From IMG/VR virus record IMGVR_UViG_3300027969_000044, positions 32,001 to 96,000 of that record: a DNA stretch of 64,000 nucleotides; one strand, 5' to 3'. Numbering within the stretch: position 1 is the first letter of the stretch; each line of letters begins with the position of its first letter. Both the position numbers and the translations under genes were made by a program. The notes beneath the pieces were generated by a model. The model was not told where the DNA came from and searched no databases. It was given only the letters and a program-made list of their open reading frames with translations. Of the stretch, positions 29,023-43,980 are shown in pieces. This DNA comes from a virus.

Positions 29023-29029
29023 AAAATAT

Positions 29030-29058
29030 TTGACTTTGCTCAAACACCTAACTATAAT
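29030..29058 (+). promoter_or_regulatory. Sigma70 promoter TTGACT-N17-TATAAT
   Basis: Near-consensus hexamers with 17-nt spacing upstream of 29077. Confidence 0.8.
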
Positions 29059-29076
29059 ATACAAAAGGACTATATC

Positions 29077-29811
29077 ATGAAAGACATTTTACAAGACATC
29101 GTATCACATACGCACAACCTAGGTTTTCTTAACATTGTTAAGGTAACTGGTACAGAAGACAAGACATTAGTAGATTCAATGGCAGATGACCGTTCGGTTA
29201 TTATGTACGCTGAAACTGCTAATCCGTACCCAGATATGATCGGCGTGTTTGGTATGCCACAATTGAACAAGTTAAAATACTTGATCGACGGCAACGAATA
29301 CAAAGACGGTGCTAAGATTGAAGTTGTTAAGCAAGATCGTAACGGTGAAGAACTTCCAGTAGGTATTCACTTTGAAAACAAAGACGGTGACTTTAAGAAC
29401 GACTACCGCTTTATGAACACAGAAATTATCAACGAAAAGTTGAAGACTGTTAAGTTCCGCGGTGTCAAGTGGGATGTAACTGTACAGCCTAGCGTACAAG
29501 CTATCCAACGTTTTGCTTTCCAAGCAGGTGCTAACACAGAGCACACAACATTCTTGGCTAAGACAGATGGTACAAATTTAAAGTTTACATTTGGTGATCA
29601 AAGTAGTCACGGTGGTGAGTTTGTATTTGCCACTGATGTAGTTGGTAAGATTACAAAGGGCTGGACATGGCCAGTTAGTAGCGTTTTAAGCATCCTTAAG
29701 ATTGCCGATGCTAACAATGCTAGTATTAGCTTTAGTAACGAAGGCGCAATGCAAATCGAACTAGACAGCGGTTTGGCAATTTACAAGTATATTATTCCAG
29801 CACAGGCATGA
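29077..29811 (+). CDS. Probable sliding clamp (gp45/PCNA-like)
   Basis: 244 aa, clamp-like alternating beta/alpha pattern and C-terminal YKYIIPA; next to PolB, with a clamp loader in the window. Confidence 0.55.
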   Translation: MKDILQDIVSHTHNLGFLNIVKVTGTEDKTLVDSMADDRSVIMYAETANPYPDMIGVFGMPQLNKLKYLIDGNEYKDGAKIEVVKQDRNGEELPVGIHFENKDGDFKNDYRFMNTEIINEKLKTVKFRGVKWDVTVQPSVQAIQRFAFQAGANTEHTTFLAKTDGTNLKFTFGDQSSHGGEFVFATDVVGKITKGWTWPVSSVLSILKIADANNASISFSNEGAMQIELDSGLAIYKYIIPAQA

Positions 29812-30176
29812 TAAACGGAATAACCCAACACGGAAAGTATATGTATATACATGGGGGCCATGCTGGTGGTCCTTATGTTAATATGAGTAATCCGTCTGCC
29901 GGTATGGTTCGATTTGACGGTGCTAACCTACAGGCATATGACGGCAATACTTGGATGACCATTGCCGGTTCAACGGCATCTGTTGGGATGAGTCCTGTTG
30001 CCGAGGAAGCAATTGACTGGGTCCGCCAGCAGATGGAAAAAGAAAAACAATTTTTTGACTTGGCAAAGACTTCTAAATCTGTTAGTATTGCATTAGAAAA
30101 CCTAAATAAAGCCAAAGCAGAACTAGAATTAATAGCCATCTTGGCGAAAGAGCACAATGAAGAAACCACCACTTAA
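29808..30176 (+). CDS. Hypothetical protein
   Basis: Overlapping start and stop with neighbours. Confidence 0.65.
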   Translation: MINGITQHGKYMYIHGGHAGGPYVNMSNPSAGMVRFDGANLQAYDGNTWMTIAGSTASVGMSPVAEEAIDWVRQQMEKEKQFFDLAKTSKSVSIALENLNKAKAELELIAILAKEHNEETTT

Positions 30177-31836
30177 CTTAACCCCACTACAGAAAGACTA
30201 CGCAGTATATCTACCTGCGATTAGTTCGTTCTACAGTACATATATTGCTAAACAACGTTTAGAAGAATTTGTTTCTAAAGATCGTATTCCTAAAGGATTT
30301 GATCGTGGCATCGAAGGCATGAATTTTTTAAATGAAGAAGAAGGATACTTTACATACAGATACGGCCTGTACTCTGCGGGTCACGCACAATTAGACTTAA
30401 ACAAAAGTATGGTACAGGAGTCTATGATCCAACAACGTGATCGCAGTAAGACTATGATCTTAGGCGACTCGGGCGGATACCAGATCGGTAAAGGTGTTCT
30501 TAAATTTGATTGGTTAGACTTTGAAGGTAAGAGTGCTAACAAGACTCGTCAAAATATTCTAGAGTGGTTAGAACTAACTGCTGATTGGTCAATGATGCTG
30601 GACGTTCCTACTTGGGCGTGTGATCACATTCATAGTCCAAAGACCGGACTAAAAACATTTGAAGACTGTTTAGAAAAAACACGTTTTAATAACGACTACT
30701 TCCTACAAAATAGATTAGGTCAAACTAAATGGCTTAATGTACTACAAGGTGGTGACTGGGATACTGCTGAAAAGTGGTACAACGGTGTTAAAGAATTTAG
30801 CGATCCAACTGGTCCATACGCAGGCAAAGAAGCCGAAGGATGGGCAATGGGGGGTGCTAATATGTGTAAGATGGATATTACGTTAAAGCGTCTAATGACA
30901 CTACGTGAAGACAACTTACTAAAAGGAAAAGACTGGATGCACTTTTTGGGTACTGCTCAACTAGACTGGTCTTGTTATCTAACTTTAATTCAACGTCAAA
31001 TTAGGAAGCATATCAATGAAAACTTTACCATCTCTTTTGATTGCGCCTCACCGTTTATCGCAACAGCGCACGGACTTGTCTACACAAACGCACAACACAC
31101 GAACAAAAGGTGGAGTGTTATTATGGACAAAGCCCCAGATAACAAATCATTGTCAGGACGTTCAGACATTCCATTCCCATTCGCAAGCGAAACAGGAAGT
31201 AGATTAACAATGGAAGATATTGCGTACTATGATATTGGTACACGCAAGACCGATGCCGAGTTAGGTACTAAGAAAGATAAAAACGGCAATGACGTTCAGA
31301 TTGAATTTGATCACTTGAAAAAAGAGCATTACAATATTGTCCCAAGACTTAACAAATTAGACAAGATTCCAAACAAAACATCTTGGGACAGTTTTGCCTA
31401 CGCTCTAATGATGGGCCATAACGTAGAATGCCATATTGTTGCTGTACAACGTGCTCAACAATTAATGGACATTGAGACTGTACGATTTAAACCTAATTGG
31501 AGAAGTTGGGGTATCGAGGGTAAGAAGGAAAAAGAATTTAGTGATTGGGTTCCCCGTAGAATCTTGTACTTTGCTACATTCATTGAAGAACTATTTGAAA
31601 CTAAGACAAAATCTGAAGCTTTTGAGTTAATCGATAGTGCTACTGTATTCTTACGTAGTTTAGAAGGTGCTCGTTTACAAGGCGGTCCTGCTCAAAACGA
31701 ATTTAATAATTTGTTTACAATTGAAGACAAGTCTATAGTAAGACTTGCGCCAGATGGCACGCCACTTTTCGATCAACAAGATGATCCAAGTTTACGTATA
31801 CTAGAGGAAAACATCCAAGATGCGAATGAGCCTTGA
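30157..31836 (+). CDS. dpdA: TGT-fold guanine transglycosylase, probably DNA-acting (DpdA-like)
   Basis: GDSGGYQ, MLDVP, NVLQG, GWAMGG, HFLG and SFD motifs in TGT order; clustered with folE and queE. Confidence 0.75.
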   Translation: MKKPPLNLTPLQKDYAVYLPAISSFYSTYIAKQRLEEFVSKDRIPKGFDRGIEGMNFLNEEEGYFTYRYGLYSAGHAQLDLNKSMVQESMIQQRDRSKTMILGDSGGYQIGKGVLKFDWLDFEGKSANKTRQNILEWLELTADWSMMLDVPTWACDHIHSPKTGLKTFEDCLEKTRFNNDYFLQNRLGQTKWLNVLQGGDWDTAEKWYNGVKEFSDPTGPYAGKEAEGWAMGGANMCKMDITLKRLMTLREDNLLKGKDWMHFLGTAQLDWSCYLTLIQRQIRKHINENFTISFDCASPFIATAHGLVYTNAQHTNKRWSVIMDKAPDNKSLSGRSDIPFPFASETGSRLTMEDIAYYDIGTRKTDAELGTKKDKNGNDVQIEFDHLKKEHYNIVPRLNKLDKIPNKTSWDSFAYALMMGHNVECHIVAVQRAQQLMDIETVRFKPNWRSWGIEGKKEKEFSDWVPRRILYFATFIEELFETKTKSEAFELIDSATVFLRSLEGARLQGGPAQNEFNNLFTIEDKSIVRLAPDGTPLFDQQDDPSLRILEENIQDANEP

Positions 31837-32020
31837 TAAAATGGAAAAACACATTGAAATCTTAAAAGAGATTAGAAATGTGCTTGACAGAGACATAGCA
31901 GAGAAGTTAAAATATAGTAGTGCTAGTCAAGACGAGATTGATCAAATGAAAGCTCGTCTACTAGAAATGGACAGACAAATCGAACAAGAATTAAAGAGTA
32001 TTGGAAACAGATATGAATAG
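31820..32020 (+). CDS. Small coiled-coil hypothetical protein
   Basis: 66-aa ORF overlapping its neighbours. Confidence 0.55.
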   Translation: MRMSLDKMEKHIEILKEIRNVLDRDIAEKLKYSSASQDEIDQMKARLLEMDRQIEQELKSIGNRYE

Positions 32021-32537
32021 AGATTACATAACTGGTAAAGCTGAAGCAGTTGAGTTTTTTACTGGAATTGAAATTGAACACACTCCTGCTTACGGAATGG
32101 AAACATTGTTTGTAACAGGTGTACACAGTCCCGATACTATCCTAGCAATGGCTGAAGAAAATAATGTTAAACATATTTATTTTGGAGCTAACCAAAGTTT
32201 TAGAACCGGTGGTGTTAACGATGCCGTAACTTGGGGACTTTGGGAAAAGATGATCTTTCCATGTCTTAAAAAAGGATACTGGTGTACATTAGACTTTGAT
32301 GTTAAAGAAGTTGAGGGACTAGTTGAGGGCGGATTTTGTGAGCACCGAAAATTCATTCCTATGATTTCGGTAAAAATTCCCTACTTGACACAACTCAATT
32401 ATAATGCTACAATTAAGATTGACGACAAGGGGTTTGAAGCAACTAACCCCGGTGTGTGGACTCATCAACTTCATGATCTTATGAAGCGTGAGAAATTTAC
32501 TGACTGGGATCAGTATAAGGACGATGAAATTTTATGA
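32013..32537 (+). CDS. Hypothetical protein in the modification cluster
   Basis: Globular enzyme-like ORF (EIEHTPAYG..TLFV, HIYFGANQSF, KIDD..F.ATNPGVW); ATG 32013 chosen as start. Confidence 0.7.
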   Translation: MNRDYITGKAEAVEFFTGIEIEHTPAYGMETLFVTGVHSPDTILAMAEENNVKHIYFGANQSFRTGGVNDAVTWGLWEKMIFPCLKKGYWCTLDFDVKEVEGLVEGGFCEHRKFIPMISVKIPYLTQLNYNATIKIDDKGFEATNPGVWTHQLHDLMKREKFTDWDQYKDDEIL

Positions 32538-32956
32538 GTTCAGTCATTAACAATTATGCTCCGGAATGCTCTTATCCCGGTTGTACTAATAAAGTTGGTT
32601 ATCATAAAAAGTACAATAAACAAGATGGATCTCCCGGCGCAAAATGGAAGAGTTGTTGCGAGTTTCACAGAAAGGCTCAAAAACCCGCTATGGATAAATT
32701 TAAAATGAAATCTGGATGTGCTAATGTTGACGCTCATCACGGATTTAAATGTACCTCAAATATTACTAGCCCCGGACAATTAGATATTAATCACATTGAC
32801 GGTAATAGATATAACAACTCCCCAGAAAATCGAGAAGTGTTATGTAAGGTGTGCCATCAACAAGTTACAATTGATAACGAACACTACTTAAATAGATACT
32901 CGCACATAAATCCTAATTTTAATAAACATTTTGAAGAAATAAAGCATGAACAATGA
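32534..32956 (+). CDS. HNH endonuclease (free-standing, possibly homing)
   Basis: LDINHIDGNRYNNSPENREVLCKVCH motif plus N-terminal Cys pairs. Confidence 0.85.
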   Translation: MSSVINNYAPECSYPGCTNKVGYHKKYNKQDGSPGAKWKSCCEFHRKAQKPAMDKFKMKSGCANVDAHHGFKCTSNITSPGQLDINHIDGNRYNNSPENREVLCKVCHQQVTIDNEHYLNRYSHINPNFNKHFEEIKHEQ

Positions 32957-33347
32957 ACTATCTATGATTTGGGTTACCTTCCGTAAAGAAGGCATTCACC
33001 TGTACCCTGCCGCGGCAACTGATCCAAAGTTAGCTACAGGCGACGAATACGATGTCAGTTTCCTTGGAACTCCGCATCGTCATATTTTCCATTTTAAAGT
33101 TTCTATCCAGGTCTTCCAAGATGACCGCGATATTGAATTTATCCAGTTTAAGCGTTGGCTTGAAAAGTGCTACAGCGATGGCACATTAGAGCTCAACCAC
33201 AAATCCTGTGAGATGATTGCTCGTGATCTTAACGACATTATCAAAGCAAGATACCCCGGTCGCAAGACCATCATTGACGTAAGTGAAGACGGCGAGAATG
33301 GCGCCACACTTACATTCCTTAATCATATTTCTACAATGGAATCTTAA
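32946..33347 (+). CDS. dpdL: QueD-like T-fold protein with LxxxHRHxF motif (DpdL-like, putative CDG decarboxylase)
   Basis: LGTPHRHIF at 33063-33089 instead of the QueD CxxxHGH motif; SCEMIA and VSEDGEN T-fold acidic motifs. The DpdL motif is from recall and needs confirming by alignment. Confidence 0.6.
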   Translation: MNNELSMIWVTFRKEGIHLYPAAATDPKLATGDEYDVSFLGTPHRHIFHFKVSIQVFQDDRDIEFIQFKRWLEKCYSDGTLELNHKSCEMIARDLNDIIKARYPGRKTIIDVSEDGENGATLTFLNHISTMES

Positions 33348-33348
33348 A

Positions 33349-33594
33349 ATGGCAGTCCCTGCTTATATCCAAAAAACCCTCCGTATGAAACCCGAAGTCG
33401 AAAAGATTTTTGACGACCTCGAAGCATGGCACGACTACTGTCGTTTTAATATGCTTAACTTCAATCAGGCGGATTTGTATCGCTCACATGATTGGCGTAA
33501 TTCTCAACGTGCTAACGGCACATATGAGCGCAAGCCATACCTGGGCAAAAAGCCACGTTACGAAGGTCGTCCTGAATACAGGAACAATCGTTAA
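33349..33594 (+). CDS. Hypothetical protein
   Basis: ATG 33349 immediately after the upstream stop; IFDDLEAWHDYCR segment. Confidence 0.65.
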   Translation: MAVPAYIQKTLRMKPEVEKIFDDLEAWHDYCRFNMLNFNQADLYRSHDWRNSQRANGTYERKPYLGKKPRYEGRPEYRNNR

Positions 33595-34692
33595 ATGAAA
33601 GTATTCCTCGTTGATCTCGAGGCAGTAGAGACTAGGTACACTGGTCAATGGAAGACTCATGTACCTGCTCTACTTAGAAAGAGAGGTTTTAATGTTCAAG
33701 TTATATCGGGTCCTAGCGATATTCCTAGCGCCACTACTCCTGGTGCCTTTCTCAATTTTGGGGGCACTAATATCTATAAGGCAAACCAAGTGGAACAGCT
33801 TGGAAGACTTTTTTGTTCAGGATCCGTCAAGGCTGGCGATCATTTTATTTTTACTGACGCTTGGCATCCGGGCATTATAAACTTAAAGTACATGAGTGAG
33901 TTGTTAGGTATTCCTATTACAACACACGGTCTTTGGCATGCCGGCAGTTATGATCCACAAGATTTCTTAGGACGTTTAGTTGGTAATAAGCCCTGGGTAA
34001 GGCACGCCGAAAAGAGTTTCTTCCACGCATTTGATCATAACTACTTTGCTACGCAATTCCATATTAAACTGTTCTATACTAATCTATTAAACGATTATCC
34101 TACAGAGAATCCGTGGTTTAGTGAACACCTTGATGAAATTCTAAAAGGTGAAGATCCTAGATTTGTGCGTACTGGTTGGCCTATGGAGTATATGCCAGAT
34201 ATGTTTACTATGTATAAGAACATGCCCAAGCGTGATCTTATACTGTTCCCTCATCGCATAGCGCCAGAGAAACAGGTTGAAATATTCCGTGACTTAGCTA
34301 CACATTTGCCGCAATATGAATTTGTTGTCTGTCAGGATCAACAGCTAACCAAGAACGAATATCATAATTTACTAGGCGAATCTAAACTAGTGTTTAGTGC
34401 TAACTTACAAGAAACATTAGGCATCAGTTGGTACGAAGGCGCATTAGTTGATGCTATTCCAATGGTTCCAGATCGTCTAAGCTATTCAGAAATGGCTTAT
34501 GATACATTTAAGTATCCTAGCGAGTGGACTGAAAGTTGGAATCATTATGTAGCAAATCGTAAAGAAATTTGTAATAAGATTATCCAGTATATGGAAAACT
34601 ATGACAAGTTCCTTCCTCAGTTACAAAAGCAGGCACAAGACCTAACTAAGTTATTCTTTAGTGCTAATAACCTTATACAAAATATAAAATGA
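33595..34692 (+). CDS. GT-B glycosyltransferase
   Basis: FPHRIAPEKQ and ETLGISWYEG (GT4-like E-x7-E) motifs in the C-terminal Rossmann domain. Confidence 0.8.
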   Translation: MKVFLVDLEAVETRYTGQWKTHVPALLRKRGFNVQVISGPSDIPSATTPGAFLNFGGTNIYKANQVEQLGRLFCSGSVKAGDHFIFTDAWHPGIINLKYMSELLGIPITTHGLWHAGSYDPQDFLGRLVGNKPWVRHAEKSFFHAFDHNYFATQFHIKLFYTNLLNDYPTENPWFSEHLDEILKGEDPRFVRTGWPMEYMPDMFTMYKNMPKRDLILFPHRIAPEKQVEIFRDLATHLPQYEFVVCQDQQLTKNEYHNLLGESKLVFSANLQETLGISWYEGALVDAIPMVPDRLSYSEMAYDTFKYPSEWTESWNHYVANRKEICNKIIQYMENYDKFLPQLQKQAQDLTKLFFSANNLIQNIK

Positions 34693-35501
34693 ATGATTCT
34701 TTTTACCCTCGAATAGGCATTGTTGGTTTAGGATTTGTAGGCGAAGCAATTCGTTCTTCTACTGAATTTGTACCAGACAACGTAGTATGCGTAGACTCAG
34801 ATGTACGTAAAGGATATGTTGGAACTTACGCAGACTTAATGACGTGTGAAGGCATCTTTATATGTGTGCCAAGTCCGATGGGTCCGGACGGGAAGTGCGA
34901 TACAAGCATTTTAGAAAATGTTTTAGAAAAGCTAAAAGACTTTCGAGGTGTTATTATTTCTAAAGTAACAGCACCTCCAGACATTTACCAACGCCTTAAC
35001 AAACAATATCCCAATCTAGTTCATGCTCCTGAATTTTTAACGGCGGCCAATGCCAGTAGAGATTATGCCAATGCTAAATGGTGTATCATTGGCGGCGATG
35101 TCCGTGCTTATAGAAACGAAGCCGAACGCATTATTAAGATGACACAACCTGGACTAGAAACTGTTAAATTTTGTAGTATTGGAGACGCCGCTCTAGCCAA
35201 ATATGCTATTAATAATTTCTTAGCTACCAAAGTGGTTTTTATGAATGAGCTGTATCAACTGGCTAATAAGACAGGATTAAATTATGATGTAGTGGCTAAT
35301 TTAATTAAACAAGATATACGCATCGGCGATAGTCATATGCGTGTTCCAGGAACAGACGGATCATTAGGATTTGGCGGATACTGCTTTCCTAAAGATACCG
35401 AAGCACTATTAAATTATGCAAAGCAATACGGTATTGACCTAAATGTAATATCATCAGCAGTACAGAAAAATTTGCTGTTGAGGTTGACTGAACCTAAATA
35501 A
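34689..35501 (+). CDS. UDP-glucose/GDP-mannose dehydrogenase-like protein lacking the C-terminal domain
   Basis: GLGFVG, ICVPSP, PEFL, KY..N.FLATKV.F.NE and GFGGYCFPKD motifs; 270 aa. Confidence 0.88.
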   Translation: MNDSFYPRIGIVGLGFVGEAIRSSTEFVPDNVVCVDSDVRKGYVGTYADLMTCEGIFICVPSPMGPDGKCDTSILENVLEKLKDFRGVIISKVTAPPDIYQRLNKQYPNLVHAPEFLTAANASRDYANAKWCIIGGDVRAYRNEAERIIKMTQPGLETVKFCSIGDAALAKYAINNFLATKVVFMNELYQLANKTGLNYDVVANLIKQDIRIGDSHMRVPGTDGSLGFGGYCFPKDTEALLNYAKQYGIDLNVISSAVQKNLLLRLTEPK

Positions 35502-35512
35502 TAGTATAAAAT
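35484..35512 (+). promoter_or_regulatory. Sigma70-type promoter TTGACT-N17-TAAAAT for folE
   Basis: -35 at 35484-35489, -10 at 35507-35512; a TAAATA also lies at 35495-35500. Confidence 0.65.
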
Positions 35513-35520
35513 AAACAAAT

Positions 35521-35546
35521 GGCAATCCACTGCCTTAACATCGGAG
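35521..35546 (+). ncRNA. Candidate miniature pseudoknot cis-regulator in the folE leader
   Basis: GGCA-ATCCAC-TGCC-TTAACATC-GGAG; loop TCC is complementary to GGA of the SD. Confidence 0.4.
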
Positions 35547-35556
35547 AATAAAAACA

Positions 35557-36321
35557 ATGACAGAATCATTAACATACAAAAATACACTTGCTGGCGCTGA
35601 ACAGCAAGATGATGACAACAAAGAATATAAAGAAGCATACTTGGGCGATCACATTCGCTTTAAAATGAAGCGTGAAGGCAAACGCTTTTGGGCGGGCGAT
35701 AACATTAGCGATTATTTGTACGAAGGCGATATAGAAAAACTAATCGACGAAGCAACACCAGCATTTGAAAAAGTGTTAGACTGTTTGCTGATTGATCGTG
35801 AAAACGATCCTAATAGTAAAGGTACAGCAAGACGTCTTGCTAAAATGTACTTTAATGAAATAATGGCAGGAAGATATGAACCAGGACCAGATGCAACAGC
35901 GTTTCCAAATGATTCGGCGGACCGTTACGAAGGTATGTTGGTTGTTCGCAGTGAGCTTCGCAGTATGTGTAGCCATCATCACCAACCCGTTAGTGGCGTT
36001 GCTTATATTGGTATTATTGCGGCTCAGAAACTCATCGGACTTAGCAAGTATACGAGGATCGCTCAGTGGTGTGCCCGTCGAGGTACTCTCCAGGAGGAAC
36101 TTTGTAATGACATTGCTAGGGAAATCAGCAGAGCAACAGAGTCAGAAAACGTAGCAGTCTATGTTCAAGCAGTACATGGGTGTTGCGAGAATCGTGGCAT
36201 TATGGCACATTCATCATTGACTCAGACTACAGTACTAAAAGGAACATTCAAAGATGATCCTCATACAAAGAAAGAGTTCTTTGACAACATTAAACTCCAA
36301 CAAGAGTTTGCTCCTCGATGA
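35557..36321 (+). CDS. folE: GTP cyclohydrolase I
   Basis: SMCSHH, GLSK..R, LQE and HGCCENRG motifs. Confidence 0.95.
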   Translation: MTESLTYKNTLAGAEQQDDDNKEYKEAYLGDHIRFKMKREGKRFWAGDNISDYLYEGDIEKLIDEATPAFEKVLDCLLIDRENDPNSKGTARRLAKMYFNEIMAGRYEPGPDATAFPNDSADRYEGMLVVRSELRSMCSHHHQPVSGVAYIGIIAAQKLIGLSKYTRIAQWCARRGTLQEELCNDIAREISRATESENVAVYVQAVHGCCENRGIMAHSSLTQTTVLKGTFKDDPHTKKEFFDNIKLQQEFAPR

Positions 36322-36431
36322 GATACATTACAAATAAATTTGAAAGTATCCGTTTACCAGTAGAAGCAGGGTTATTAGAATGGTTACAGGAAAACTACCC
36401 TGCTTCTAAATATTATATAAAGGAAATATAA
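36318..36431 (+). CDS. Small hypothetical protein (37 aa)
   Basis: MRYITNKFESIRLPVEAGLLEWLQENYPASKYYIKEI*; ATGA overlap with folE; fills the gap exactly. Confidence 0.55.
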   Translation: MRYITNKFESIRLPVEAGLLEWLQENYPASKYYIKEI

Positions 36432-36432
36432 A

Positions 36433-36624
36433 ATGACAAAACTAGCTAAACTGGCAAAAGTAAATGAGAATATCAGTGTCAATCGTTACGACAACGGTTG
36501 GATGGTAGAAATTGGTGGACGTGATGGTGAGAGTGATTGGAAAAATTGTAAAATTCTTTGTAACACAGAAGAAGAGATGATTTCTGTAATCAAAGAATGG
36601 AACACTAAAGATTTGGACAACTAA
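36433..36624 (+). CDS. Hypothetical protein
   Basis: SD AAGGA; 63 aa. Confidence 0.65.
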   Translation: MTKLAKLAKVNENISVNRYDNGWMVEIGGRDGESDWKNCKILCNTEEEMISVIKEWNTKDLDN

Positions 36625-36625
36625 T

Positions 36626-36841
36626 ATGAATTCCGTAGACATGGCTAACAACCTAATTTTTAGAGCCAAACACTTAGAAGAATTTACTGTAACTACGGAT
36701 GTTCCCGAAGACTTTCGTTTTAATGGAGTTATTCCATTTGACATGACCATCGAAGATAGTGTAATATATGCTAAAGTGTTCGCTGTCGATTTTAATGAGG
36801 CAGTTGAACGTTTGAATAACTTTTTAGAAAGTTGCAAATGA
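36626..36841 (+). CDS. Hypothetical protein
   Basis: 71 aa, tightly packed. Confidence 0.6.
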   Translation: MNSVDMANNLIFRAKHLEEFTVTTDVPEDFRFNGVIPFDMTIEDSVIYAKVFAVDFNEAVERLNNFLESCK

Positions 36842-37308
36842 AATGGTTTTTAAACTGGCTTGATAGCATTGGAAGGAAGCGTGTTATTATGGATCGTCTT
36901 TGTAACGAACCATATTTAGAACGCTATTACTTGTTCTTGAAAGATAGGAACAAGTTCCCATTTAATGTGTTCCTACACAAATTTTTAAAAGGTGATCCAG
37001 ATGATGTACACGACCATCCGTGGCCCTATGCTACACTAATTTTAAAAGGCGGTTATTATGAATGGATTCCACAATTTAATACAGACGGTACAAAAAGTTG
37101 CGAGATTCGTAAGTGGCGTGGACCCGGCCATTTTAGGATTTGTAGCCCTAACAGTTATCATCGTGTTGAACTAAAATCAGGTGTTACAGCTTGGACATTG
37201 TTTATGCCAGGTCCACATAAACGAGACTGGGGTTTCCTAGTTAATAATAAATGGATCCAAAATGAAACTTATTTGAAAGAACGTTATGAAGCAAGTAATA
37301 AGCAATAA
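36838..37308 (+). CDS. Cupin-fold protein
   Basis: HDHPW...ILKGGYYE...HRVEL...WTLF metal-binding cupin pattern. Confidence 0.75.
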   Translation: MKWFLNWLDSIGRKRVIMDRLCNEPYLERYYLFLKDRNKFPFNVFLHKFLKGDPDDVHDHPWPYATLILKGGYYEWIPQFNTDGTKSCEIRKWRGPGHFRICSPNSYHRVELKSGVTAWTLFMPGPHKRDWGFLVNNKWIQNETYLKERYEASNKQ

Positions 37309-37846
37309 AGAGTACAAAGGCCTTATCAATAAAATCTGTCGCGATATCGCAAATAGCGAGTGGCGTCCTGATTACATTGCTGGTATTAGTCGCGGCGGGT
37401 TGCCGGCGGCTGTAATGATCAGTCATTATTTAGACGTACCTATGTACACGCTAAACGTAAGTTTGCGTGATCATGCGTTTGGTCCAGAAAGTAATTTGTG
37501 GATGGCTGAAGATGCCTACGGTTACATTAACTACGAAGGTGAAATTCCTGCCCCCAAAGGTCGTATTACTAGTGATCCTGTCCTACGTAAGAAGATTCTT
37601 ATTGTAGACGACATTAACGATACCGGGGCTACTATTAACTGGATCTTAAATGATTGGCCAAGTGGGTGTTTACCAACTGATCCCGCATGGGAAGACATCT
37701 GGAACAATAGTGTTCGATTTGCCACAGTAGTAGATAATCAAAGTAGCAAGGCAAACGTACCCATGGACTATGTCGGTATGGAAATTAACAAAGCAGAAAA
37801 GAATGTTTGGATTGAATTTCCATACGAAGAATGGTGGACAAAATGA
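37286..37846 (+). CDS. Type I phosphoribosyltransferase (purine PRT-like)
   Basis: GISRGG, ILIVDDINDTGAT (PRPP-binding loop) and WIEFPYE motifs. Confidence 0.9.
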   Translation: MKQVISNKEYKGLINKICRDIANSEWRPDYIAGISRGGLPAAVMISHYLDVPMYTLNVSLRDHAFGPESNLWMAEDAYGYINYEGEIPAPKGRITSDPVLRKKILIVDDINDTGATINWILNDWPSGCLPTDPAWEDIWNNSVRFATVVDNQSSKANVPMDYVGMEINKAEKNVWIEFPYEEWWTK

Positions 37847-38124
37847 CTCCGCAAATAAAAGAAGCAATGGACATTCTTCAAGAAGAGTGTGCCGAGGTTA
37901 TACAAGCGGTAAGTAAAATTAGTCGCTTTGGTTTAGATAATTATAAACCAAATAAGCCTAAAACTAATCGAGAACATCTCGAAGAAGAACTAGGTGATAT
38001 GTTAGCTATGATCGACATCTTACAAGAAATGGATGTCGTGTCATATACTAACATTGAAAAAGCACAAGCGGCCAAAATTGAAAAACTTAAACAATGGTCA
38101 AATATCTATGAGCAATCTACCTAA
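37843..38124 (+). CDS. MazG-like nucleotide pyrophosphohydrolase
   Basis: QEECAEVIQA...LEEELGDML motif. Confidence 0.85.
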   Translation: MTPQIKEAMDILQEECAEVIQAVSKISRFGLDNYKPNKPKTNREHLEEELGDMLAMIDILQEMDVVSYTNIEKAQAAKIEKLKQWSNIYEQST

Positions 38125-38305
38125 AGATGGAAGCAGATGGTCTGGAAGTGATAATAGTGTGTTTCACGTATTACATACTATTGTAATAGAAGGTCAAATC
38201 TGGGTTCATTATATTAAAGAAACAACAAAAGAAACTAATGAAGCACGAGAATATAGTTGTTATCTCGAAAGTTTCTTACAAAGATTTAGAGCACTACCAG
38301 AATGA
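38108..38305 (+). CDS. Hypothetical protein
   Basis: MSNLPKDGSRW...ESFLQRF; small beta-rich ORF. Confidence 0.6.
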   Translation: MSNLPKDGSRWSGSDNSVFHVLHTIVIEGQIWVHYIKETTKETNEAREYSCYLESFLQRFRALPE

Positions 38306-38670
38306 CACAACTAAAAGGCCTAGTACCAAAAGGTTGGGGATCAGAATTTATCTGGGCCACAAACGACAAATACTGCGGCAAGTTTATGAACTTTAACGCA
38401 GGTGCTAAGTTTAGTATGCACTTTCATCGAGACAAAGAAGAAACTTGGTATGTACAAAGCGGCAAATTTATTGTTCGTTGGATTGATACTGCCACTGCCG
38501 AACTACACGAAGAAGAAATACGTGACGGATCAGTTTGGCATAATTCCCCATGTATGCCTCATCAACTCATTTGTTTAGAAGCTGGTACAGTTATCGAAGT
38601 ATCTACTCCAGATAGCGTTGAAGACAATTATCGTGTAATGCCTGGTGACAGTCAAAATGCCAAGATATAG
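38302..38670 (+). CDS. Cupin protein (sugar isomerase / PMI type II C-terminal-like)
   Basis: KGWGSE, SMHFH..KEETW, PHQL and EVST motifs. Confidence 0.8.
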   Translation: MTQLKGLVPKGWGSEFIWATNDKYCGKFMNFNAGAKFSMHFHRDKEETWYVQSGKFIVRWIDTATAELHEEEIRDGSVWHNSPCMPHQLICLEAGTVIEVSTPDSVEDNYRVMPGDSQNAKI

Positions 38671-38872
38671 AAAAGACTCAGACGGTAATGGTCCCTCTTA
38701 TAAGAAAGGCGACCGAGTATGGGTTGCCTCTTTAAAAATGGAAGCTACTGTAATTGAACAGGTGCTTCATTGGGACTATCCTGAATCATTTTACGGCAAT
38801 GTCAAATTAAAGTATGACGACGGTGTTGAAGGAATTAGTAATTGTTGGCAATTGTCAAGGGTAGTTAGATGA
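38657..38872 (+). CDS. Small SH3/KOW-like hypothetical protein
   Basis: YKKGDRVWV pattern. Confidence 0.55.
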   Translation: MPRYRKDSDGNGPSYKKGDRVWVASLKMEATVIEQVLHWDYPESFYGNVKLKYDDGVEGISNCWQLSRVVR

Positions 38873-39270
38873 AAACTGTAATTGTTAACGGAACATTTGA
38901 TATACTTCACCCTGGACATATCAGAATGTTAAACACAGCACGTAGTTTAGGTGACTATCTCATTGTGTGTATTGATACTGACCGTCGTGTTAAAGAACTT
39001 AAAGGCGATCAGCGTCCAATTAATGATCAAAACTTTCGAAGAGTAATGCTACAAAATCTCAAGGCTGTAGACATAGTAGAATTCTTTGACAGTCGAGAAC
39101 AATTAATAGATTTAATTAAATTGTACAAGCCAGATATTATGGTTAAAGGTAGTGACTGGAAAGGTAAGAGTATAACTGCTCAAGAACACGTTAAGGAAAT
39201 CTTTTGGTATGATAGATTCGATGAATACTCAACAACAAAAATCATTCAAGATATTATTAATCGGGGATAA
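38869..39270 (+). CDS. HldE/RfaE domain II-like sugar-1-phosphate nucleotidyltransferase
   Basis: NGTFDILHPGH, LKG..RPIN, PDI.VKGSDW and STTKII motifs. Confidence 0.88.
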   Translation: MKTVIVNGTFDILHPGHIRMLNTARSLGDYLIVCIDTDRRVKELKGDQRPINDQNFRRVMLQNLKAVDIVEFFDSREQLIDLIKLYKPDIMVKGSDWKGKSITAQEHVKEIFWYDRFDEYSTTKIIQDIINRG

Positions 39271-39982
39271 TTGTAATGACATTTATACATATGGTTATGT
39301 AAACCGTATTAGCCCCGAAGCCCCGGTGCCTATCTTTGAACCGCACTATACCATTCACAAAGATGGCATGGCTGGCAACGTGTGTAAGAACTTAGAAGCA
39401 TTGGGATGTAATGTTGATTTCCTAAGAGATAAAGACAAAGTCAGTGAGAAGAACAGACTAATTGATCATCGTACCAAACAACAATTACTACGTATAGACA
39501 GAGATAGTGAAAGTAAGCCCATTATATTTGAAACAGCAATACCGCCAGTATATGATGCTATAGTTGTTAGTGACTACGGCAAAGGCACAGTGACTTATGA
39601 GTTGATTGAAGAATTAGTTAAGACTCAAACAATTCCTATTTTTATTGACACAAAGAAGCACGACCTGGCACGTATGAACGGTTGTTATATTAAAGTAAAT
39701 GCTCTAGAAAGAAGTCGTGCTGTTAGTTTGCCCGACGCTAAATGGTTAATTGTTACACACGGCGGAGATGGCGCTTCGTGGGATGGATGGGTATTACCTG
39801 CTGAAATTGCAGGTGATGTTGTTGATGTATGTGGAGCCGGTGACACGTTCTTATCGGCTTTAGTTTATGAATTTTTACAAACAAACAATATTCGTAGCGC
39901 AATAAAATTTGCAAACAAGGCAGCGGCAGTAACAGTTCAACATACAGGTGTATACGCACCAAGACTAGAGGAAATAAAATGA
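39209..39982 (+). CDS. HldE/RfaE domain I-like PfkB sugar kinase
   Basis: RISPEAPVP, GMAGNV, SDYGKG and DVCGAGDTF motifs. Confidence 0.9.
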   Translation: MIDSMNTQQQKSFKILLIGDNCNDIYTYGYVNRISPEAPVPIFEPHYTIHKDGMAGNVCKNLEALGCNVDFLRDKDKVSEKNRLIDHRTKQQLLRIDRDSESKPIIFETAIPPVYDAIVVSDYGKGTVTYELIEELVKTQTIPIFIDTKKHDLARMNGCYIKVNALERSRAVSLPDAKWLIVTHGGDGASWDGWVLPAEIAGDVVDVCGAGDTFLSALVYEFLQTNNIRSAIKFANKAAAVTVQHTGVYAPRLEEIK

Positions 39983-40374
39983 CTAAAATATTTGAAGGAC
40001 CGGAACATATCGAGGATAGTGAAGCACCTTGGGATGACACAATGCGTGACGATTTTCATGTAACAGTTTTTTATGACAAGTATCCAGTAACAAACGGACA
40101 TCTATTGTTCGTGCCTAAATATAATACAGTAGGAGTATTGAATGAAGCTTTTCAAGATGCTTTTAGAGAAGGTAAGAAACAAGTCGACAACGGAAACTGG
40201 GACGGTTTCAACATTGGCTTTAACTATGGCGAAGCTGCAGGTCAAACTGTCAACTGGCCTCACATCCATCTTATTCCCCGTCATAAAGGCGATGTCGAAG
40301 ACCCAATTGGCGGCGTTAGAAACACAATCCCAGGCAAAGGCAACTATCGCTCGGCACACTATAAGCAAGATTAA
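39979..40374 (+). CDS. HIT-family hydrolase
   Basis: YPVTNGHLLFVPK and AGQTVNWPHIHLIPR (the first triad His is replaced by W). Confidence 0.88.
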   Translation: MTKIFEGPEHIEDSEAPWDDTMRDDFHVTVFYDKYPVTNGHLLFVPKYNTVGVLNEAFQDAFREGKKQVDNGNWDGFNIGFNYGEAAGQTVNWPHIHLIPRHKGDVEDPIGGVRNTIPGKGNYRSAHYKQD

Positions 40375-40816
40375 ACCAGTCCAGTTTCAATGGAGTGGAA
40401 CTCCAACAGTTGGAATTATAGCTCAGACTATTGGACCATTAACTCCATCTTCGTGGAGCACATATAATATTCCTCCTCCAACTGTCCATTCTGGGCAGTT
40501 TGTTCCTAACAACTCTATCCAATTTAATAATTCTAACAGTAAGCCGGTATTAACTATTACACACGATGGCGAGGTTGTTTGGGATGGAAAGCCCAGTGAA
40601 GCCGCAGAAGCATTAAAGCGAACTTTCCAATTTACAGTAGAAGATATGAAGGGCGTTACCAAAGCCGCACGTAGACGCTACTATTGGAGAGCAGTAGACA
40701 ACCTTGCTAAAAAATCTAAAACAATGTCGGCAGAACAATTTGTTGACTTTGTTCAAAAGCAAGCGTATAATAGAGAATGTAAGGTACTAATTGATACATT
40801 GAAAGGAACATTATGA
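40292..40816 (+). CDS. Hypothetical protein overlapping the 3' end of the HIT gene
   Basis: The nearest in-frame ATG is 40292, giving an 83-nt overlap; start uncertain. Confidence 0.55.
   Translation: MSKTQLAALETQSQAKATIARHTISKIKPVQFQWSGTPTVGIIAQTIGPLTPSSWSTYNIPPPTVHSGQFVPNNSIQFNNSNSKPVLTITHDGEVVWDGKPSEAAEALKRTFQFTVEDMKGVTKAARRRYYWRAVDNLAKKSKTMSAEQFVDFVQKQAYNRECKVLIDTLKGTL
40743..40771 (+). promoter_or_regulatory. Intragenic sigma70 promoter TTGACT-N17-TATAAT driving the queE region
   Basis: Same hexamers and spacing as the other promoters in the window. Confidence 0.7.
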
Positions 40817-41016
40817 AACAATTTACAGTTAAAGAAACCGAAGGTTTTCGTCTTCGTGTTAAAAGTTGGAAATGCGTTAACCCAGCAGATTTAAATTCTA
40901 TTGAGTTTATTCAAGAAACATTGACAGATGGAAAAGTAAGTGGCAGTTCTGTTTATAACTTTTTCATGACAGATGTAGAAGTCAAAGAACTAGCCGCAGG
41001 ACTTGTAAATGAGTAA
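40813..41016 (+). CDS. Hypothetical protein
   Basis: SD AAGGA; 67 aa. Confidence 0.65.
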   Translation: MKQFTVKETEGFRLRVKSWKCVNPADLNSIEFIQETLTDGKVSGSSVYNFFMTDVEVKELAAGLVNE

Positions 41017-41860
41017 GATTAAAATAGCAGAACTATTTTATAGCATTCAAGGTGAAGGACGCTTTATGGGCGTCCCATCTGTGTTTCTGCGTACATTTGG
41101 CTGTAACTTTACTTGTCAAGGTTTTGGCATGCCGCTTGGTGAACTAAGCAAAGAAGCAGAATTTGTTGACCCTACAAAATATAAAACATATAATGAACTT
41201 CCGCTCGTTAGTACTGGTTGCGATAGTTATGCTTCTTGGGATCCACGTTTTAAAGACCTTAGTCCTATGCTCACTACAGACGCAATCGCAGACAGAATTA
41301 TGGAGATATTGCCCTTCAATGAATGGCAGGACGAGCATCTAGTTATTACAGGCGGTGAGCCGTTACTAGGTTGGCAAAAAGCATATCCAGCATTGTTAGA
41401 TAATCCTAAAATGAAAGGGTTAAAAGAAATTACGTTTGAAACAAATGGTTCAATGCGTTTGACTAAAGATTTTAGACAATATCTACTAAACTGGTCATTA
41501 GGTAATAAAGAAAGAGGACGCAACGCCCTTACATTTAGTGTAAGCGCAAAACTTCCGTGTTCTGGAGAACCGTGGAAAGATGCTATTAAGCCAGAAGTAG
41601 TTTGTGCTTACGAAGAAGTTGGGTACACCTATTTGAAGTTTGTAGTTTCTACAGAACAAGATATTGAAGATGCGCTAAAAGCTACAGACGAATTTCGAAA
41701 AGGCGGGTTTAAAGGCCCTGTTTATCTAATGCCAGTTGGCGGAGTTGAGTCAGTATATGCTTTAAATAATAAAGCAGTAGCAGTGGCCGCAATGAAACAC
41801 GGACTTAGATATAGTGATAGATTACAGGTGCCGTTATTTAAAAACGAGTGGGGAACTTGA
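41009..41860 (+). CDS. queE: 7-carboxy-7-deazaguanine synthase (radical SAM)
   Basis: ELFYSIQGEG...G.PSVFLR..GCN..C, CDS, ITGGEPLL, ETNG, VSAKL and RLQV motifs. Confidence 0.9.
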   Translation: MSKIKIAELFYSIQGEGRFMGVPSVFLRTFGCNFTCQGFGMPLGELSKEAEFVDPTKYKTYNELPLVSTGCDSYASWDPRFKDLSPMLTTDAIADRIMEILPFNEWQDEHLVITGGEPLLGWQKAYPALLDNPKMKGLKEITFETNGSMRLTKDFRQYLLNWSLGNKERGRNALTFSVSAKLPCSGEPWKDAIKPEVVCAYEEVGYTYLKFVVSTEQDIEDALKATDEFRKGGFKGPVYLMPVGGVESVYALNNKAVAVAAMKHGLRYSDRLQVPLFKNEWGT

Positions 41861-42285
41861 TGAAAAATTGGTTAAAGAAAATAACAGGACTTGACAAGTT
41901 AGAAAAAGAACGATCTGACGCATTGGCTAGAGCGGCAGAAGCACTTGTTAAAGAAAAAGAAGCAGTAGAATCAGCTCGCCTTGCTAAACTTAATCCAAAA
42001 GAACTTGCTAATGAAAAAGCAGAGCCGTATATAGCAGTACTTGAAACAAAAGTAAACGTAGATAATCCACGTAACGGATTTTTTGAACTTGACTGGAATG
42101 AGCACTTTGTTACTCAACTAAAAAATGCCGGGTACTCCGGAGAAACAGATGAAGAAATTGTAGATCAATGGTTCCAGGATCTCTGCCGTAATGTTGGAGC
42201 TGAAGCGGGTGTTAGCATGGATCGTAGAGGTAGTGGTTATATAAACGTAAACAAGATAGACGGAAATAGATCGGAAATTGGTTAA
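41860..42285 (+). CDS. Hypothetical protein
   Basis: GFFELDWN...IVDQWF segment; ATG 41860 overlaps the queE stop. Confidence 0.7.
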   Translation: MKNWLKKITGLDKLEKERSDALARAAEALVKEKEAVESARLAKLNPKELANEKAEPYIAVLETKVNVDNPRNGFFELDWNEHFVTQLKNAGYSGETDEEIVDQWFQDLCRNVGAEAGVSMDRRGSGYINVNKIDGNRSEIG

Positions 42286-43271
42286 TGACTTACATTTTAG
42301 TAGATACAGCAAATTTGTTCTTTCGTGCTAGGCACGTAGTACGTGGAGATCTTGAAGAAAAGATCGGCATGTGTCTACATGTTACATTTAATAGTGTACG
42401 CAAGGCGTGGCGTGACTTTGGAGGCACACACGTTATCTTCTGTTTGGAGGGACGTAGCTGGCGTAAGAACTTTTACAAGCCGTATAAGGCGCAACGAGCA
42501 GACGCACGTTCAAAACACACAGTAAAAGAAGCAGAAGAAGAAAAGCTCTTTTGGGAAACGTTTGATAAGTTTAAAGAGTATATTCATGCTCAAACTAATT
42601 GTACTGTTCTACAACATCCAGAATTAGAAGCTGATGATTTAATTGCGGGTTTTATCCAAAGTCATCCAAATGACAATCATGTTGTGATTTCAACAGACGG
42701 AGATTTTGCACAACTTATTGCTCCAAACGTAAAACAGTATAACGGTGTAATGGGTATTACAACTACGCATGAGGGATACTTTGATGACAAAAATAAACCT
42801 GTCACTGATAAGAAAACTAAACAAGTTAAGCCCGCGCCGGATCCGGCCTGGTTGCTATTTGAGAAGTGTATGCGTGGAGACACCTCCGACAACATCTTTA
42901 GTGCTTATCCGGGAGTACGTGAGAAAGGGACAAAGAATAAAGTTGGTCTCCGTGAGGCCTTTGCAGACAGAGATTCCAAAGGATATTCTTGGAACAATCT
43001 CATGTTGCAACGTTGGACTGACCACGAAGGTGTCGAGCATCGTGTACTAGATGATTACAACCGTAATGTTAAATTATGTGACTTAAAAGCACAGCCAGAA
43101 GATATTCGAGCAAAGATGACTGAATGTATTCAGGCAGAATTTGCTAAACACAAAGAAGTAAAACAAGTTGGCATTCGTTTAATGAAGTTTGCTAACTCTT
43201 ACGAACTACAAAAAGTAGTTGAGCAGGCAGAAAGTTATGCTGAACCTTTGAACGCGAGATATCATGTATGA
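42285..43271 (+). CDS. 5'-3' exonuclease / flap endonuclease (T4 RNase H-like)
   Basis: LVD..N, YKAQR, EADD, STDGD..QL and GDTSDNI motifs. Confidence 0.92.
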   Translation: MTYILVDTANLFFRARHVVRGDLEEKIGMCLHVTFNSVRKAWRDFGGTHVIFCLEGRSWRKNFYKPYKAQRADARSKHTVKEAEEEKLFWETFDKFKEYIHAQTNCTVLQHPELEADDLIAGFIQSHPNDNHVVISTDGDFAQLIAPNVKQYNGVMGITTTHEGYFDDKNKPVTDKKTKQVKPAPDPAWLLFEKCMRGDTSDNIFSAYPGVREKGTKNKVGLREAFADRDSKGYSWNNLMLQRWTDHEGVEHRVLDDYNRNVKLCDLKAQPEDIRAKMTECIQAEFAKHKEVKQVGIRLMKFANSYELQKVVEQAESYAEPLNARYHV

Positions 43272-43753
43272 AGGAAATTATGACCAAAGTTAAAGTATTG
43301 ATTCCAAACAAAAGTTGGTTAATAGAGAATGGCGGAGAAAAGATAGGAACACTGAGTAAAGAAAAATCAGGATATTCTATTTTACAAAATGGACAAAAGT
43401 ATGAAATTGGCAATGCCAATAATGTTCGAGAGCAATTGGGCATCAACATCACAGAAGAACTTGTAAAGACTAAAAAGGTAGCAGTTCCAAAAGAACTTAC
43501 AAATAGTGTTTATGAATTTCCGTGTTCAAGCAAACCATTTAGTCCATTGTACAATGTTCGTAAAAAATTGCCAATATATGCTAAAAGTACAAAAAGTAAA
43601 AGTCAGTATTGTGCCGGATACTATGTAATTCAATTCCGAAAAGGTTGGGTTAAATCGTTCTGTCCTAAACTTATTACACTAGAACGATATCCGTTTAAAG
43701 GCCCGTTTAGAACAGAACAAGAAATGCGTCAACAACTCAACTTACTTAAATGA
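43268..43753 (+). CDS. Hypothetical protein
   Basis: 161-aa ORF in the operon. Confidence 0.7.
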   Translation: MKEIMTKVKVLIPNKSWLIENGGEKIGTLSKEKSGYSILQNGQKYEIGNANNVREQLGINITEELVKTKKVAVPKELTNSVYEFPCSSKPFSPLYNVRKKLPIYAKSTKSKSQYCAGYYVIQFRKGWVKSFCPKLITLERYPFKGPFRTEQEMRQQLNLLK

Positions 43754-43980
43754 AACCAATTAACACGGTTCCAATTGAAATGTTCTTGGAAAAGGCCAGG
43801 ATTGCTATCAAATCCGGCCAAAAACAAATGAATATTGACATAAAAGACGTTATTGCTATCAATGATAGCATTGCCATTGTTATGACACGTCTGGCGGGAA
43901 AATTAGACGAGCAGATGTATAATGCTCCTAAGCAGGATGATGTTCTCGAAGTAAGAATGGATGGTGGCGGTTTTAAGTAA
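43750..43980 (+). CDS. Hypothetical protein
   Basis: 76 aa; ends MDGGGF. Confidence 0.65.
   Translation: MKPINTVPIEMFLEKARIAIKSGQKQMNIDIKDVIAINDSIAIVMTRLAGKLDEQMYNAPKQDDVLEVRMDGGGFK

Follow-up and report, generated by a model that had tools for sequence, protein, structure and literature searches.

What base does a giant phage make with a 7-deazaguanine gene cluster that lacks QueC, and do the sugar-handling genes interleaved with that cluster take part in making it? These questions are raised by the IMG/VR virus record IMGVR_UViG_3300027969_000044, of which we analyzed a stretch of 64,000 nucleotides (the window), bases 32001-96000 of a 166-kb linear contig that is estimated to be 46% complete. 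The source is an uncultured giant phage; over 400 viral contigs, the longest reaching 331 kb, hold relatives that share 78-85% protein identity, and the cluster itself found no match among GenBank phages by megablast. Our best explanation, to which we give a probability of about 0.6, is a QueC-less, DpdL-type 7-deazaguanine system with a glycosyltransferase (GT) that adds a sugar somewhere in the pathway. By analogy with characterized phages, the core is very probably a module that places 7-deazaguanine in DNA as its deoxynucleoside (dDG), while the participation of the GT in that pathway, argued mainly from gene linkage, is tentative and falls somewhat short of even odds.

The transglycosylase, DpdL and the deazaguanine pathway

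The genes on which this reading depends follow a DNA polymerase gene and are listed here with the evidence for each.

30157..31836, + strand: divergent DpdA-type guanine transglycosylase, predicted TGT fold, 559 amino acids (aa), motif DSGGYQ (structure model, motifs)
32946..33347, + strand: DpdL, T-fold protein, proposed 7-carboxy-7-deazaguanine (CDG) decarboxylase (LGTPHRHIF, homology)
33595..34692, + strand: GT4-like GT-B glycosyltransferase, 365 aa (AF2 model, Foldseek, motifs)
35557..36321, + strand: FolE, GTP cyclohydrolase I, first step from GTP (PF01227, 9.8e-39; NCBIfam FolE, 8e-40)
41009..41860, + strand: QueE, radical-SAM 7-carboxy-7-deazaguanine synthase (phrog_2076, 2.8e-52)

All predicted genes from about 24 kb to 48 kb are on the + strand, and between 29808 and 35501, from the protein upstream of DpdA through a dehydrogenase, successive genes overlap or abut. 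The initial annotation of this DNA, made from the sequence without database searches, had named FolE, QueE, the GT, the dehydrogenase, two cupins, an HldE-like pair, a phosphoribosyltransferase (PRTase), MazG and HIT, and each was recovered at its place on the + strand. Its reading of the whole as a 7-deazaguanine DNA-modification cluster with a DpdA-type transglycosylase is supported by the fold and motifs of the latter and by DpdL, FolE and QueE.

The 559-aa protein had no match in Pfam, PHROGs or NCBIfam, nor in the PDB with phmmer; the Pfam model for tRNA-guanine transglycosylases (TGT, PF01702) found nothing on the whole 166-kb contig, and a 61-sequence profile of the family reached a TGT in the PDB only at an E-value of 1.8. 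Because these direct searches found nothing, the TGT assignment needed structure. An AlphaFold (AF2) model (pLDDT 88.5) gave Foldseek matches of which the top 50 were all TGT (E-value ~3e-6, probability 1.00), and VIA aligned 305 residues to 2ash (Z 18.9, root-mean-square deviation 4.5 Å). D104, S105, G107, H262 and D295 were invariant among 61 diverse homologues and D143 was nearly so (at least 90%). Aligned to Escherichia coli Tgt (hhalign, 88%), the protein places DSGGYQ on DSGGFQ, matches the substrate Asp, and sets GWAMGG on GYAVGG and SFDCASP on MFDCVMP, the nucleophile motif; the TGT fold and DSGGYQ catalytic motif proposed at the outset are thus both borne out.

The same fold and motifs would also suit an enzyme that acts on phage or host tRNA, with the pathway supplying a tRNA modification. 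We consider this very improbable. Besides the missing Pfam TGT match, the zinc site of tRNA TGTs (CxCxxC...H) has no counterpart in the 61-sequence alignment, where no cysteine stands in an invariant or near-invariant column, and the protein resembles Tgt less closely than it does the transglycosylases encoded with DpdL. The order of polymerase, putative clamp and transglycosylase resembles that of Enterobacteria phage 9g, a dG+ phage with DpdA1 in which FolE, QueD and QueE also follow, although 9g differs in having Gat-QueC and a canonical QueD (CxxxHGH). In addition, Pseudomonas phage PA5oct, which bears a homologue, has modified DNA (PMC12191111).

Profile comparison by hhalign of the 559-aa family gave 96.5% (E-value 7e-10) with the 424-aa transglycosylase of Acidovorax phage ACP17, 95% with that of Xanthomonas phage BUDD and 92% with that of Synechococcus phage BUCT-ZZ01, which shows a clear, though distant, kinship of the family with the transglycosylases found beside DpdL. 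Comparison with the named DpdA subfamilies, which covered DpdA1 and DpdA3, was less telling: DpdA3 of Cellulophaga phage phiST was only weakly related (60%, E-value 8e-5, 84 columns), and DpdA1 of 9g showed no significant profile similarity. The family comprises 843 clusters at 50% identity, and none of its more than 6,350 matches in a 90%-identity database is named. On its modelled fold and motifs we assign the protein as the DpdA of a large, unannotated and divergent subfamily, and propose, by analogy, that it exchanges G in phage DNA for 7-deazaguanine.

The second key assignment is the T-fold protein. Its motif, L40-G-T-P-H44-R45-H46-I-F48, has H44, H46 and F48 invariant and R45 nearly so among 11 homologues, and fits the definition of DpdL, in which the QueD motif CxxxHGH is changed to LxxxHRHxF (Cui et al. 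2023, Nucleic Acids Research, PMC10516641). With tblastn it was 56.7% identical to ACP17 DpdL (E-value 7e-38) and 33.9% identical to the DpdL of phages phiST, phi13:1 and phi19:2 (E-value 1e-7). Given this signature and the identities of 57% and 34%, we identify the protein by homology as DpdL. A profile of it matched no T-fold entry in the PDB, and its T-fold assignment follows Cui et al. and the homology to named DpdL proteins. DpdL occurs in phages that have DpdA, FolE, QueD and QueE and lack QueC, and the DNA of the DpdL-bearing Cellulophaga phages phiST, phi19:2 and phi13:1 contains dDG, with no dG signal in phiST (PMC10516641). CDG decarboxylation, which the initial annotation had raised as an alternative for this protein, is the activity proposed for DpdL in that study, and we propose the same here by analogy.

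FolE was found in 85% of 40 close relatives, defined throughout as relatives with loci that span GT to QueE, and QueE in all 40. QueE matched phrog_2076 ("QueE-like radical SAM domain") over its full length and five NCBIfam QueE models, all below their equivalog cut-offs. The first annotation had found neither QueC nor a canonical QueD. For QueC this extends to the 166-kb contig, to PA5oct and to the Sinorhizobium jumbo phage Phosso. A QueD of the PTPS family is present, however, outside the window and 54 kb upstream of the cluster (C1:8418-8831, L089:1447-1953; 52 bits). It carries CNLNHGY, a CxxxHGY variant, and aligns with the QueDs of phiST, ACP17, BUCT-ZZ01 and Phosso; from these sequences, a CxxxHGY QueD seems typical of DpdL-bearing phages. 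The HGY variant also occurs in a second PTPS-family protein of PA5oct and in the PTPS match of relative G002.

The contig, about 46% complete, thus holds all four of DpdA, FolE, QueD and QueE without QueC. Two near-complete relatives gave a marginal match to the QueC model (23.7 bits, cut-off 22) about 180 kb from dpdA; this gene, which looks like a generic PP-loop ATPase, is the sole QueC candidate in relatives that are 80-93% complete, and we set it aside as an improbable QueC, its best NCBIfam match being the TilS N-terminal model and no QueC being matched in the PDB. The ATPase (L084:1093-3049, L083:1480-2316) adjoins a radical-SAM/SPASM protein and an Asp/Arg beta-hydroxylase-like protein, with which it may form a separate modification module. 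The window's contig ends before the equivalent position and has no homologue of the ATPase.

Compared with phiST, then, the system shares FolE, a CxxxHGY QueD, QueE, an LxxxHRHxF DpdL, a TGT-fold transglycosylase, a nearby MazG and the lack of QueC. Because its gene set equals that of phiST, 7-deazaguanine is the most likely base. phiST differs in its DpdA3 of 259 aa, which aligns only weakly to the 559-aa family, in its polymerase, which is of the Pol III alpha type and not of family B, and in having no GT of the window's family (by BLAST of its records, with none annotated at the locus viewed) and, at that locus, no annotated PRTase and no homologue of the window's 178-aa protein. The proposal of a new base does not hold on the deazaguanine side, as dDG and the deoxynucleoside of CDG (dCDG) are already described and the T-fold protein belongs to a named family. 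The core pathway to dDG via DpdL is known, and the cluster is an added member.

PA5oct (Wroclawvirus) provides the nearest link to an experimentally modified DNA. Its DNA resists five restriction enzymes, which its authors read as modified G, placed in GA and/or GG contexts and not at every G; their preprint cites QueE and PTPS and reports no transglycosylase, DpdL or GT (PMC12191111). We found PolB, the 244-aa protein that follows it in the window, a DpdA-like protein (43% identical to the window's), a GT (42%), DpdL (54%), the PRTase, QueE and RNase H in synteny with the window, while a truncated NAD-epimerase-like gene stands where the window has a truncated dehydrogenase, and the HldE-like genes, cupins, MazG and HIT are absent from the PA5oct cluster by BLAST. 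Five of six genes annotated as "hypothetical" can now be given a probable identity.

PA5oct MK797984.1, EST35_0316 to EST35_0321 (L001:11995-16380): 0316, DpdA-type transglycosylase; 0317, GT4-like GT; 0318, DpdL; 0320, truncated NAD-epimerase-like protein; 0321, PRTase

By synteny, these are likely to include the transglycosylase, DpdL, GT and PRTase that lie behind the modified G of PA5oct.

The glycosyltransferase and its linkage to DpdL

The AF2 model of the 365-aa GT (pLDDT 89.8) matched BshA best in Foldseek (9e-9, TM 0.65), followed by glycogen synthase, GlgM, PglA, PimA and a tetrahydrobiopterin (BH4) glucosyltransferase. Enzymes of the GT4 type are recognized by an E-x7-E motif and by basic residues that hold the diphosphate of the nucleoside diphosphate sugar; E273-x7-E281 and H220/R221/K226 are invariant here among 32 homologues. 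The window's GT did not match PF00534 at an E-value of 0.01, and 15 of 32 family members did (best 1e-10). The T4 alpha- and beta-glucosyltransferases, which place sugar on 5-hydroxymethylcytosine after replication as a defence against restriction, did not figure in the 39 entries that the GT model's listing gave through rank 50. T4 resembles the window in encoding a GT-B enzyme with a base-modification pathway and differs in its acceptor, a hydroxymethyl pyrimidine that a ThyA-family enzyme provides. A ThyA-family hydroxymethylase was absent from the window's contig, from ACP17 and BUCT-ZZ01 and from a relative that is 93% complete; four of five genomes with the GT close to DpdL lack one. A hydroxymethyl pyrimidine, the usual acceptor, is therefore unlikely.

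The appearance of BH4 glucosyltransferases (5zes and 9v0l) among the structural matches, together with FolE and PTPS-family genes, would fit a pathway in which the product of FolE, the T-fold proteins and the GT is no DNA base but a glycosylated pterin like cyanobacterial biopterin glucoside. Yet these enzymes rank only 16th and 24th among generic GT4 matches, QueE serves the deazapurine branch alone and accompanies the module in 100% of relatives, and pterin synthesis has no place for a TGT-fold enzyme. Of all the explanations that we weighed, this is the least probable.

The evidence that ties the GT to the deazaguanine genes is its distribution. Whether the GT co-occurs with dpdA in relatives had been posed as a check of the initial annotation, and the outcome is positive: DpdA, the 178-aa protein, DpdL, the GT and QueE are each present in 40/40 close relatives, and the pairing extends to other phages and to metagenomic loci. 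Matches to homologues of the 365-aa protein (the GT365 family) occur in 23 GenBank phage records, 18 of which also have DpdL. The distance between GT and DpdL is 10-25 bp in ACP17, Phosso and BUCT-ZZ01, 145 bp in PA5oct, 1.5 kb in BUDD and X1, and 2.8 kb in BCSR5, so that the GT lies near DpdL in at least seven cultured-phage lineages with varying gene order. ACP17, for example, has a homologue of the 178-aa gene, then DpdA, GT, DpdL and QueE; BUDD has GT, DpdA, DpdL and QueE; and BUCT-ZZ01 has QueE, PRTase, QueD, FolE, DpdA, DpdL and GT. ACP17, BUDD and BUCT-ZZ01 all carry a GT365-family GT, DpdA, DpdL, QueE and FolE in one cluster, as the window does, and differ from it in gene order and in a shorter DpdA (~416-437 aa) with ISYDS replacing SFDCASP. 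Because proximity persists while gene order changes, we read the linkage of GT and DpdL as selected.

More distant loci gave the same picture. A GT365-family gene lies no more than 2.3 kb away in 18 of 32 DpdL loci on contigs of metagenome-assembled genomes (MAGs), some of them with DpdL at only 33-46% identity. All 32 of these GTDB matches (L100-L131) fall on MAG contigs whose assigned phyla, archaea among them, are unrelated, and some of the contigs are 330-335 kb long with the phage order PolB-DpdA-DpdL-GT; they look like giant-phage contigs mis-binned into MAGs. Cui et al. make no mention of a glycosyltransferase (PMC10516641), and we found no description of the GT-DpdL pairing in the literature searched.

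Several observations weigh against a GT that works within the deazaguanine pathway, or against the pathway as we draw it. BLAST found no GT365-family gene in the records of the phiST group, RHph_I1_18 or Vibrio phage D479, with absence confirmed at the DpdL loci viewed in phiST, RHph_I1_18 and D479, nor in those of Vibrio phage Bakedbeans, Aeromonas phage Ahp1 and Chryseobacterium phage MA9V-3. Since phiST makes dDG without a GT, the enzyme would be an add-on that is not required for dDG. The structures nearest to the GT act on small molecules, not DNA, and no hydroxyl acceptor is obvious in 7-deazaguanine. In relatives, the genes from GT to QueE flank a hotspot where Bax1-I, homing endonucleases and a weak HhH-GPD-like gene are found as well. 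On the side of the core, dpdL and dpdA of phiST or ACP17 gave no dDG when expressed in E. coli (PMC10516641), and with the contig about 46% complete, the missing half of the genome leaves room for QueC or further tailoring genes.

These points bring in a simpler explanation, in which the cluster is a plain dDG (or dCDG) system and the GT and sugar-nucleotide genes act on the host envelope, a virion protein or a small molecule. The full replacement of dG in phiST and the several DpdL phages without a GT agree with it, as do the small-molecule or glycan acceptors of the nearest GT structures, the unrelated cargo between GT and QueE, and the rarity of the HldE-like genes (5%). What it explains poorly is the GT beside DpdL in at least seven cultured lineages and in distant metagenomic ones, which is hard to account for without functional coupling, and the compact array itself, in which genes overlap or abut and the GT start abuts the stop of the small open reading frame (ORF) that follows DpdL. 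We regard the plain system as rather unlikely.

We therefore retain a DpdL-type system with a GT in the pathway, and from gene linkage propose the deazaguanine base, or DNA that contains it, as the acceptor of the GT. Glycosylation of a free deazapurine has a chemical precedent in actinomycete huimycin, where the GT HuiG glycosylates a free preQ0-derived deazapurine base (10.64898/2026.04.15.718813). A sugar on 7-deazaguanine, as the free base or in DNA, and tailored in some lineages by dehydrogenase, epimerase-like or HldE-like genes, is plausible but less likely than not, and a shade less probable than the broader claim that the GT acts in the pathway.

Accessory genes between the glycosyltransferase and QueE, and neighboring genes

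The remaining genes of the region are as follows.

26353..29022, + strand: family B DNA polymerase (PolB), start of the replication and modification gene array (tblastn)
29077..29811, + strand: 244-aa protein, earlier labelled "clamp" (phrog_12062, unknown function)
32001..32537, + strand: conserved 178-aa protein (in 40/40 relatives)
32534..32956, + strand: HNH homing endonuclease (phrog_10822, 1e-5; Pfam HNH_3 below cut-off)
33283..33594, + strand: small conserved ORF between DpdL and GT, true start uncertain (in 38/40 relatives)
34689..35501, + strand: truncated UDP-glucose/GDP-mannose dehydrogenase-family protein (PF03721 and PF00984 only)
36832..37308, + strand: cupin A, overlapping the PRTase start (phrog_4786, 6.6e-37; 36/40 relatives, 90%)
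37286..37846, + strand: type I purine-type PRTase (PF00156, 3e-12; 28/40 relatives, 70%)
37831..38124, + strand: MazG-type nucleoside triphosphate pyrophosphohydrolase (PF03819, 2.7e-7; phrog_4856, 7e-25; 16/40 relatives, 40%)
38302..38670, + strand: cupin B, accessory (Cupin_2, 1.7e-6; phrog_7851, 7e-42; 2/40 relatives)
38869..39270, + strand: HldE domain II-like sugar-1-phosphate nucleotidyltransferase, accessory (TIGR02199, 2e-37, below cut-off; phrog_7878, 3e-45)
39209..39982, + strand: HldE domain I-like PfkB sugar kinase, accessory (TIGR02198, 2e-38, below cut-off; PF00294)
39979..40374, + strand: HIT-family nucleotide hydrolase or transferase (PF01230, 3.5e-9; 20/40 relatives, 50%)

The initial annotation had taken the co-located sugar genes together as a sign of a sugar-decorated base or of a second, glycosylated modification. 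This holds for the GT, present in all 40 relatives, and fails for the HldE-like pair and cupin B (2/40 each) and for the dehydrogenase (10/40, 25%). Because the stretch between GT and QueE also collects unrelated cargo, interleaving is weak evidence for most of the sugar genes. The dehydrogenase keeps the NAD and central domains and the catalytic-Cys motif GFGGYCFPKD and lacks the C-terminal UDP-binding domain; it aligns to residues 5-293 of a 450-aa dehydrogenase, stopping about 150 residues early. Its start overlaps the GT stop codon in the window, and in 12/12 relatives' loci that bear the gene it is 266-272 aa long and starts within about 30 bases of the GT stop or overlaps it, the short form being kept down to 51% identity. 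As its length is conserved across these loci, we take it to be a maintained form and not a pseudogene. The HldE-like domains are separate genes and fall below their NCBIfam cut-offs (domain I, 132 bits against 345; domain II, 128 bits against 181.5). From this distribution, we read the dehydrogenase, the HldE-like pair and the other variable genes as lineage-variable accessories, with sugar supply or tailoring as a possible role of some. For the folE leader (window 35440-35560), a preQ1-like riboswitch drew no support from Rfam, which matched no family anywhere in 29000-44000 at an E-value of 1 or below.

The PRTase would most likely recycle the guanine released by base exchange into GMP: its best matches, all weak, are HGPRT, XPRT and the purine PRTase 1vdm, and it recurs in the clusters of PA5oct and of BUCT-ZZ01, where the counterpart is annotated XGPRT. 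A minor rival role is the making of deazapurine nucleotides, which leads to a different account of the whole cluster. In a tubercidin-like route, the PRTase would couple CDG or 7-deazaguanine to phosphoribosyl pyrophosphate, the resulting deoxynucleoside triphosphate would be incorporated into DNA, MazG would remove dGTP, and the TGT-fold protein would have a secondary or proofreading part. Tubercidin synthesis is itself QueC-less and uses CDG with a PF00156 PRTase and a decarboxylase (10.64898/2026.04.15.718813); the PRTase recurs in the window's clade as well as in PA5oct and BUCT-ZZ01, and MazG recurs too, also adjoining DpdL in phiST. However, 30% of the close relatives lack the PRTase while all have DpdA, BLAST found no PRTase homologue in the ACP17 cluster, the enzyme's weak best matches are guanine, hypoxanthine and xanthine PRTases, and no reductase or kinase set for the full route was found in the cluster. 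The placing of modified G in GA and/or GG contexts in PA5oct, not everywhere, suits a post-replicative transglycosylase (PMC12191111). We judge the nucleotide route improbable. As their chemistry is described, huimycin and tubercidin are precedents for deazapurine glycosylation and for a QueC-less route through CDG, respectively; both are actinomycete secondary-metabolite clusters that differ from the window in having no transglycosylase and in a decarboxylase of the UbiD type rather than a T-fold protein.

Among the neighbors, PolB is 50% identical to the DNA polymerase of Phosso and about 45% to those of Rak2/121Q-like phages (tblastn). The "clamp" label of the 244-aa protein drew no confirmation from its sequence, which matched nothing in Pfam or the PDB. 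Phosso has a 246-aa gene in the same place after PolB that its depositors call a sliding clamp, with no similarity to the 244-aa protein by tblastn, and the homologue in PA5oct (37% identical) carries the annotation of virion structural protein. The 178-aa protein has a 34% identical homologue immediately upstream of ACP17 dpdA; it had no match in Pfam, PHROGs, NCBIfam or the PDB and no lead in the ESM Atlas (best score 0.76), and a Phosso "glycosylase" considered as its homologue was rejected as not homologous. The HNH homing endonuclease sits between the 178-aa gene and dpdL and, as it was found in 1/40 relatives, is a recent mobile insertion outside the pathway. The small ORF at 33283..33594 matched no family in Pfam or PHROGs.

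Two further genes were seen at these loci. A 145-aa gene after QueE (window 41848-42285) matches phrog_13349, "virion structural protein" (4e-14); it is kept with the cluster in 90% of relatives and is also in PA5oct. In 17 related loci, and not in the window, homologues of a 155-aa protein (L060:6054-6521) with a weak HhH-GPD (EndoIII-like) match (E-value 1.5e-4, below cut-off) lie between FolE and the PRTase; these may be of interest here, since END nucleases use an inactive EndoIII domain to sense modified DNA.

The proposed pathway and its meaning

The chemistry of the pathway we propose is taken from phiST and from established queuosine-pathway chemistry, to which the present analysis adds gene identities, folds, motifs and co-inheritance. 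FolE would convert GTP to dihydroneopterin triphosphate, the phiST-type QueD would convert this to 6-carboxytetrahydropterin (CPH4), and QueE would turn CPH4 into CDG. DpdL would then remove the carboxyl group of CDG to give 7-deazaguanine, which the 559-aa DpdA would swap for guanine in replicated DNA, yielding dDG and blocking restriction, with the released guanine passing through the PRTase into GMP. At some step the GT may add a sugar, either to the base or to the modified DNA, as its linkage suggests, and the dehydrogenase, the HldE-like pair, the cupins and HIT may serve as lineage-variable genes of sugar supply or tailoring.

Two elements, the large divergent DpdA subfamily and a GT consistently linked to DpdL, are not described in the literature searched. 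Bases of the 7-deazaguanine type make up the principal purine modifications known from phage DNA and serve as a model of anti-restriction chemistry, and a very large unannotated family is now placed in the DpdA class. The cultured phages PA5oct, ACP17, BUDD and BUCT-ZZ01 share the DpdA-GT-DpdL core, and for PA5oct, which is studied for therapeutic use and for which experiments point to a modified G, we name the likely transglycosylase, DpdL and GT. If the GT does put a sugar on 7-deazaguanine, this would be the first sugar-bearing purine analogue in a natural genome, shared by PA5oct, ACP17 and a clade of uncultured giant phages that is very abundant, and it could explain the failure of dpdA and dpdL alone in E. 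coli. The interactions of these abundant phages with restriction, CRISPR and END-type nucleases, as well as their sequencing and base-calling, would then need to be read anew.

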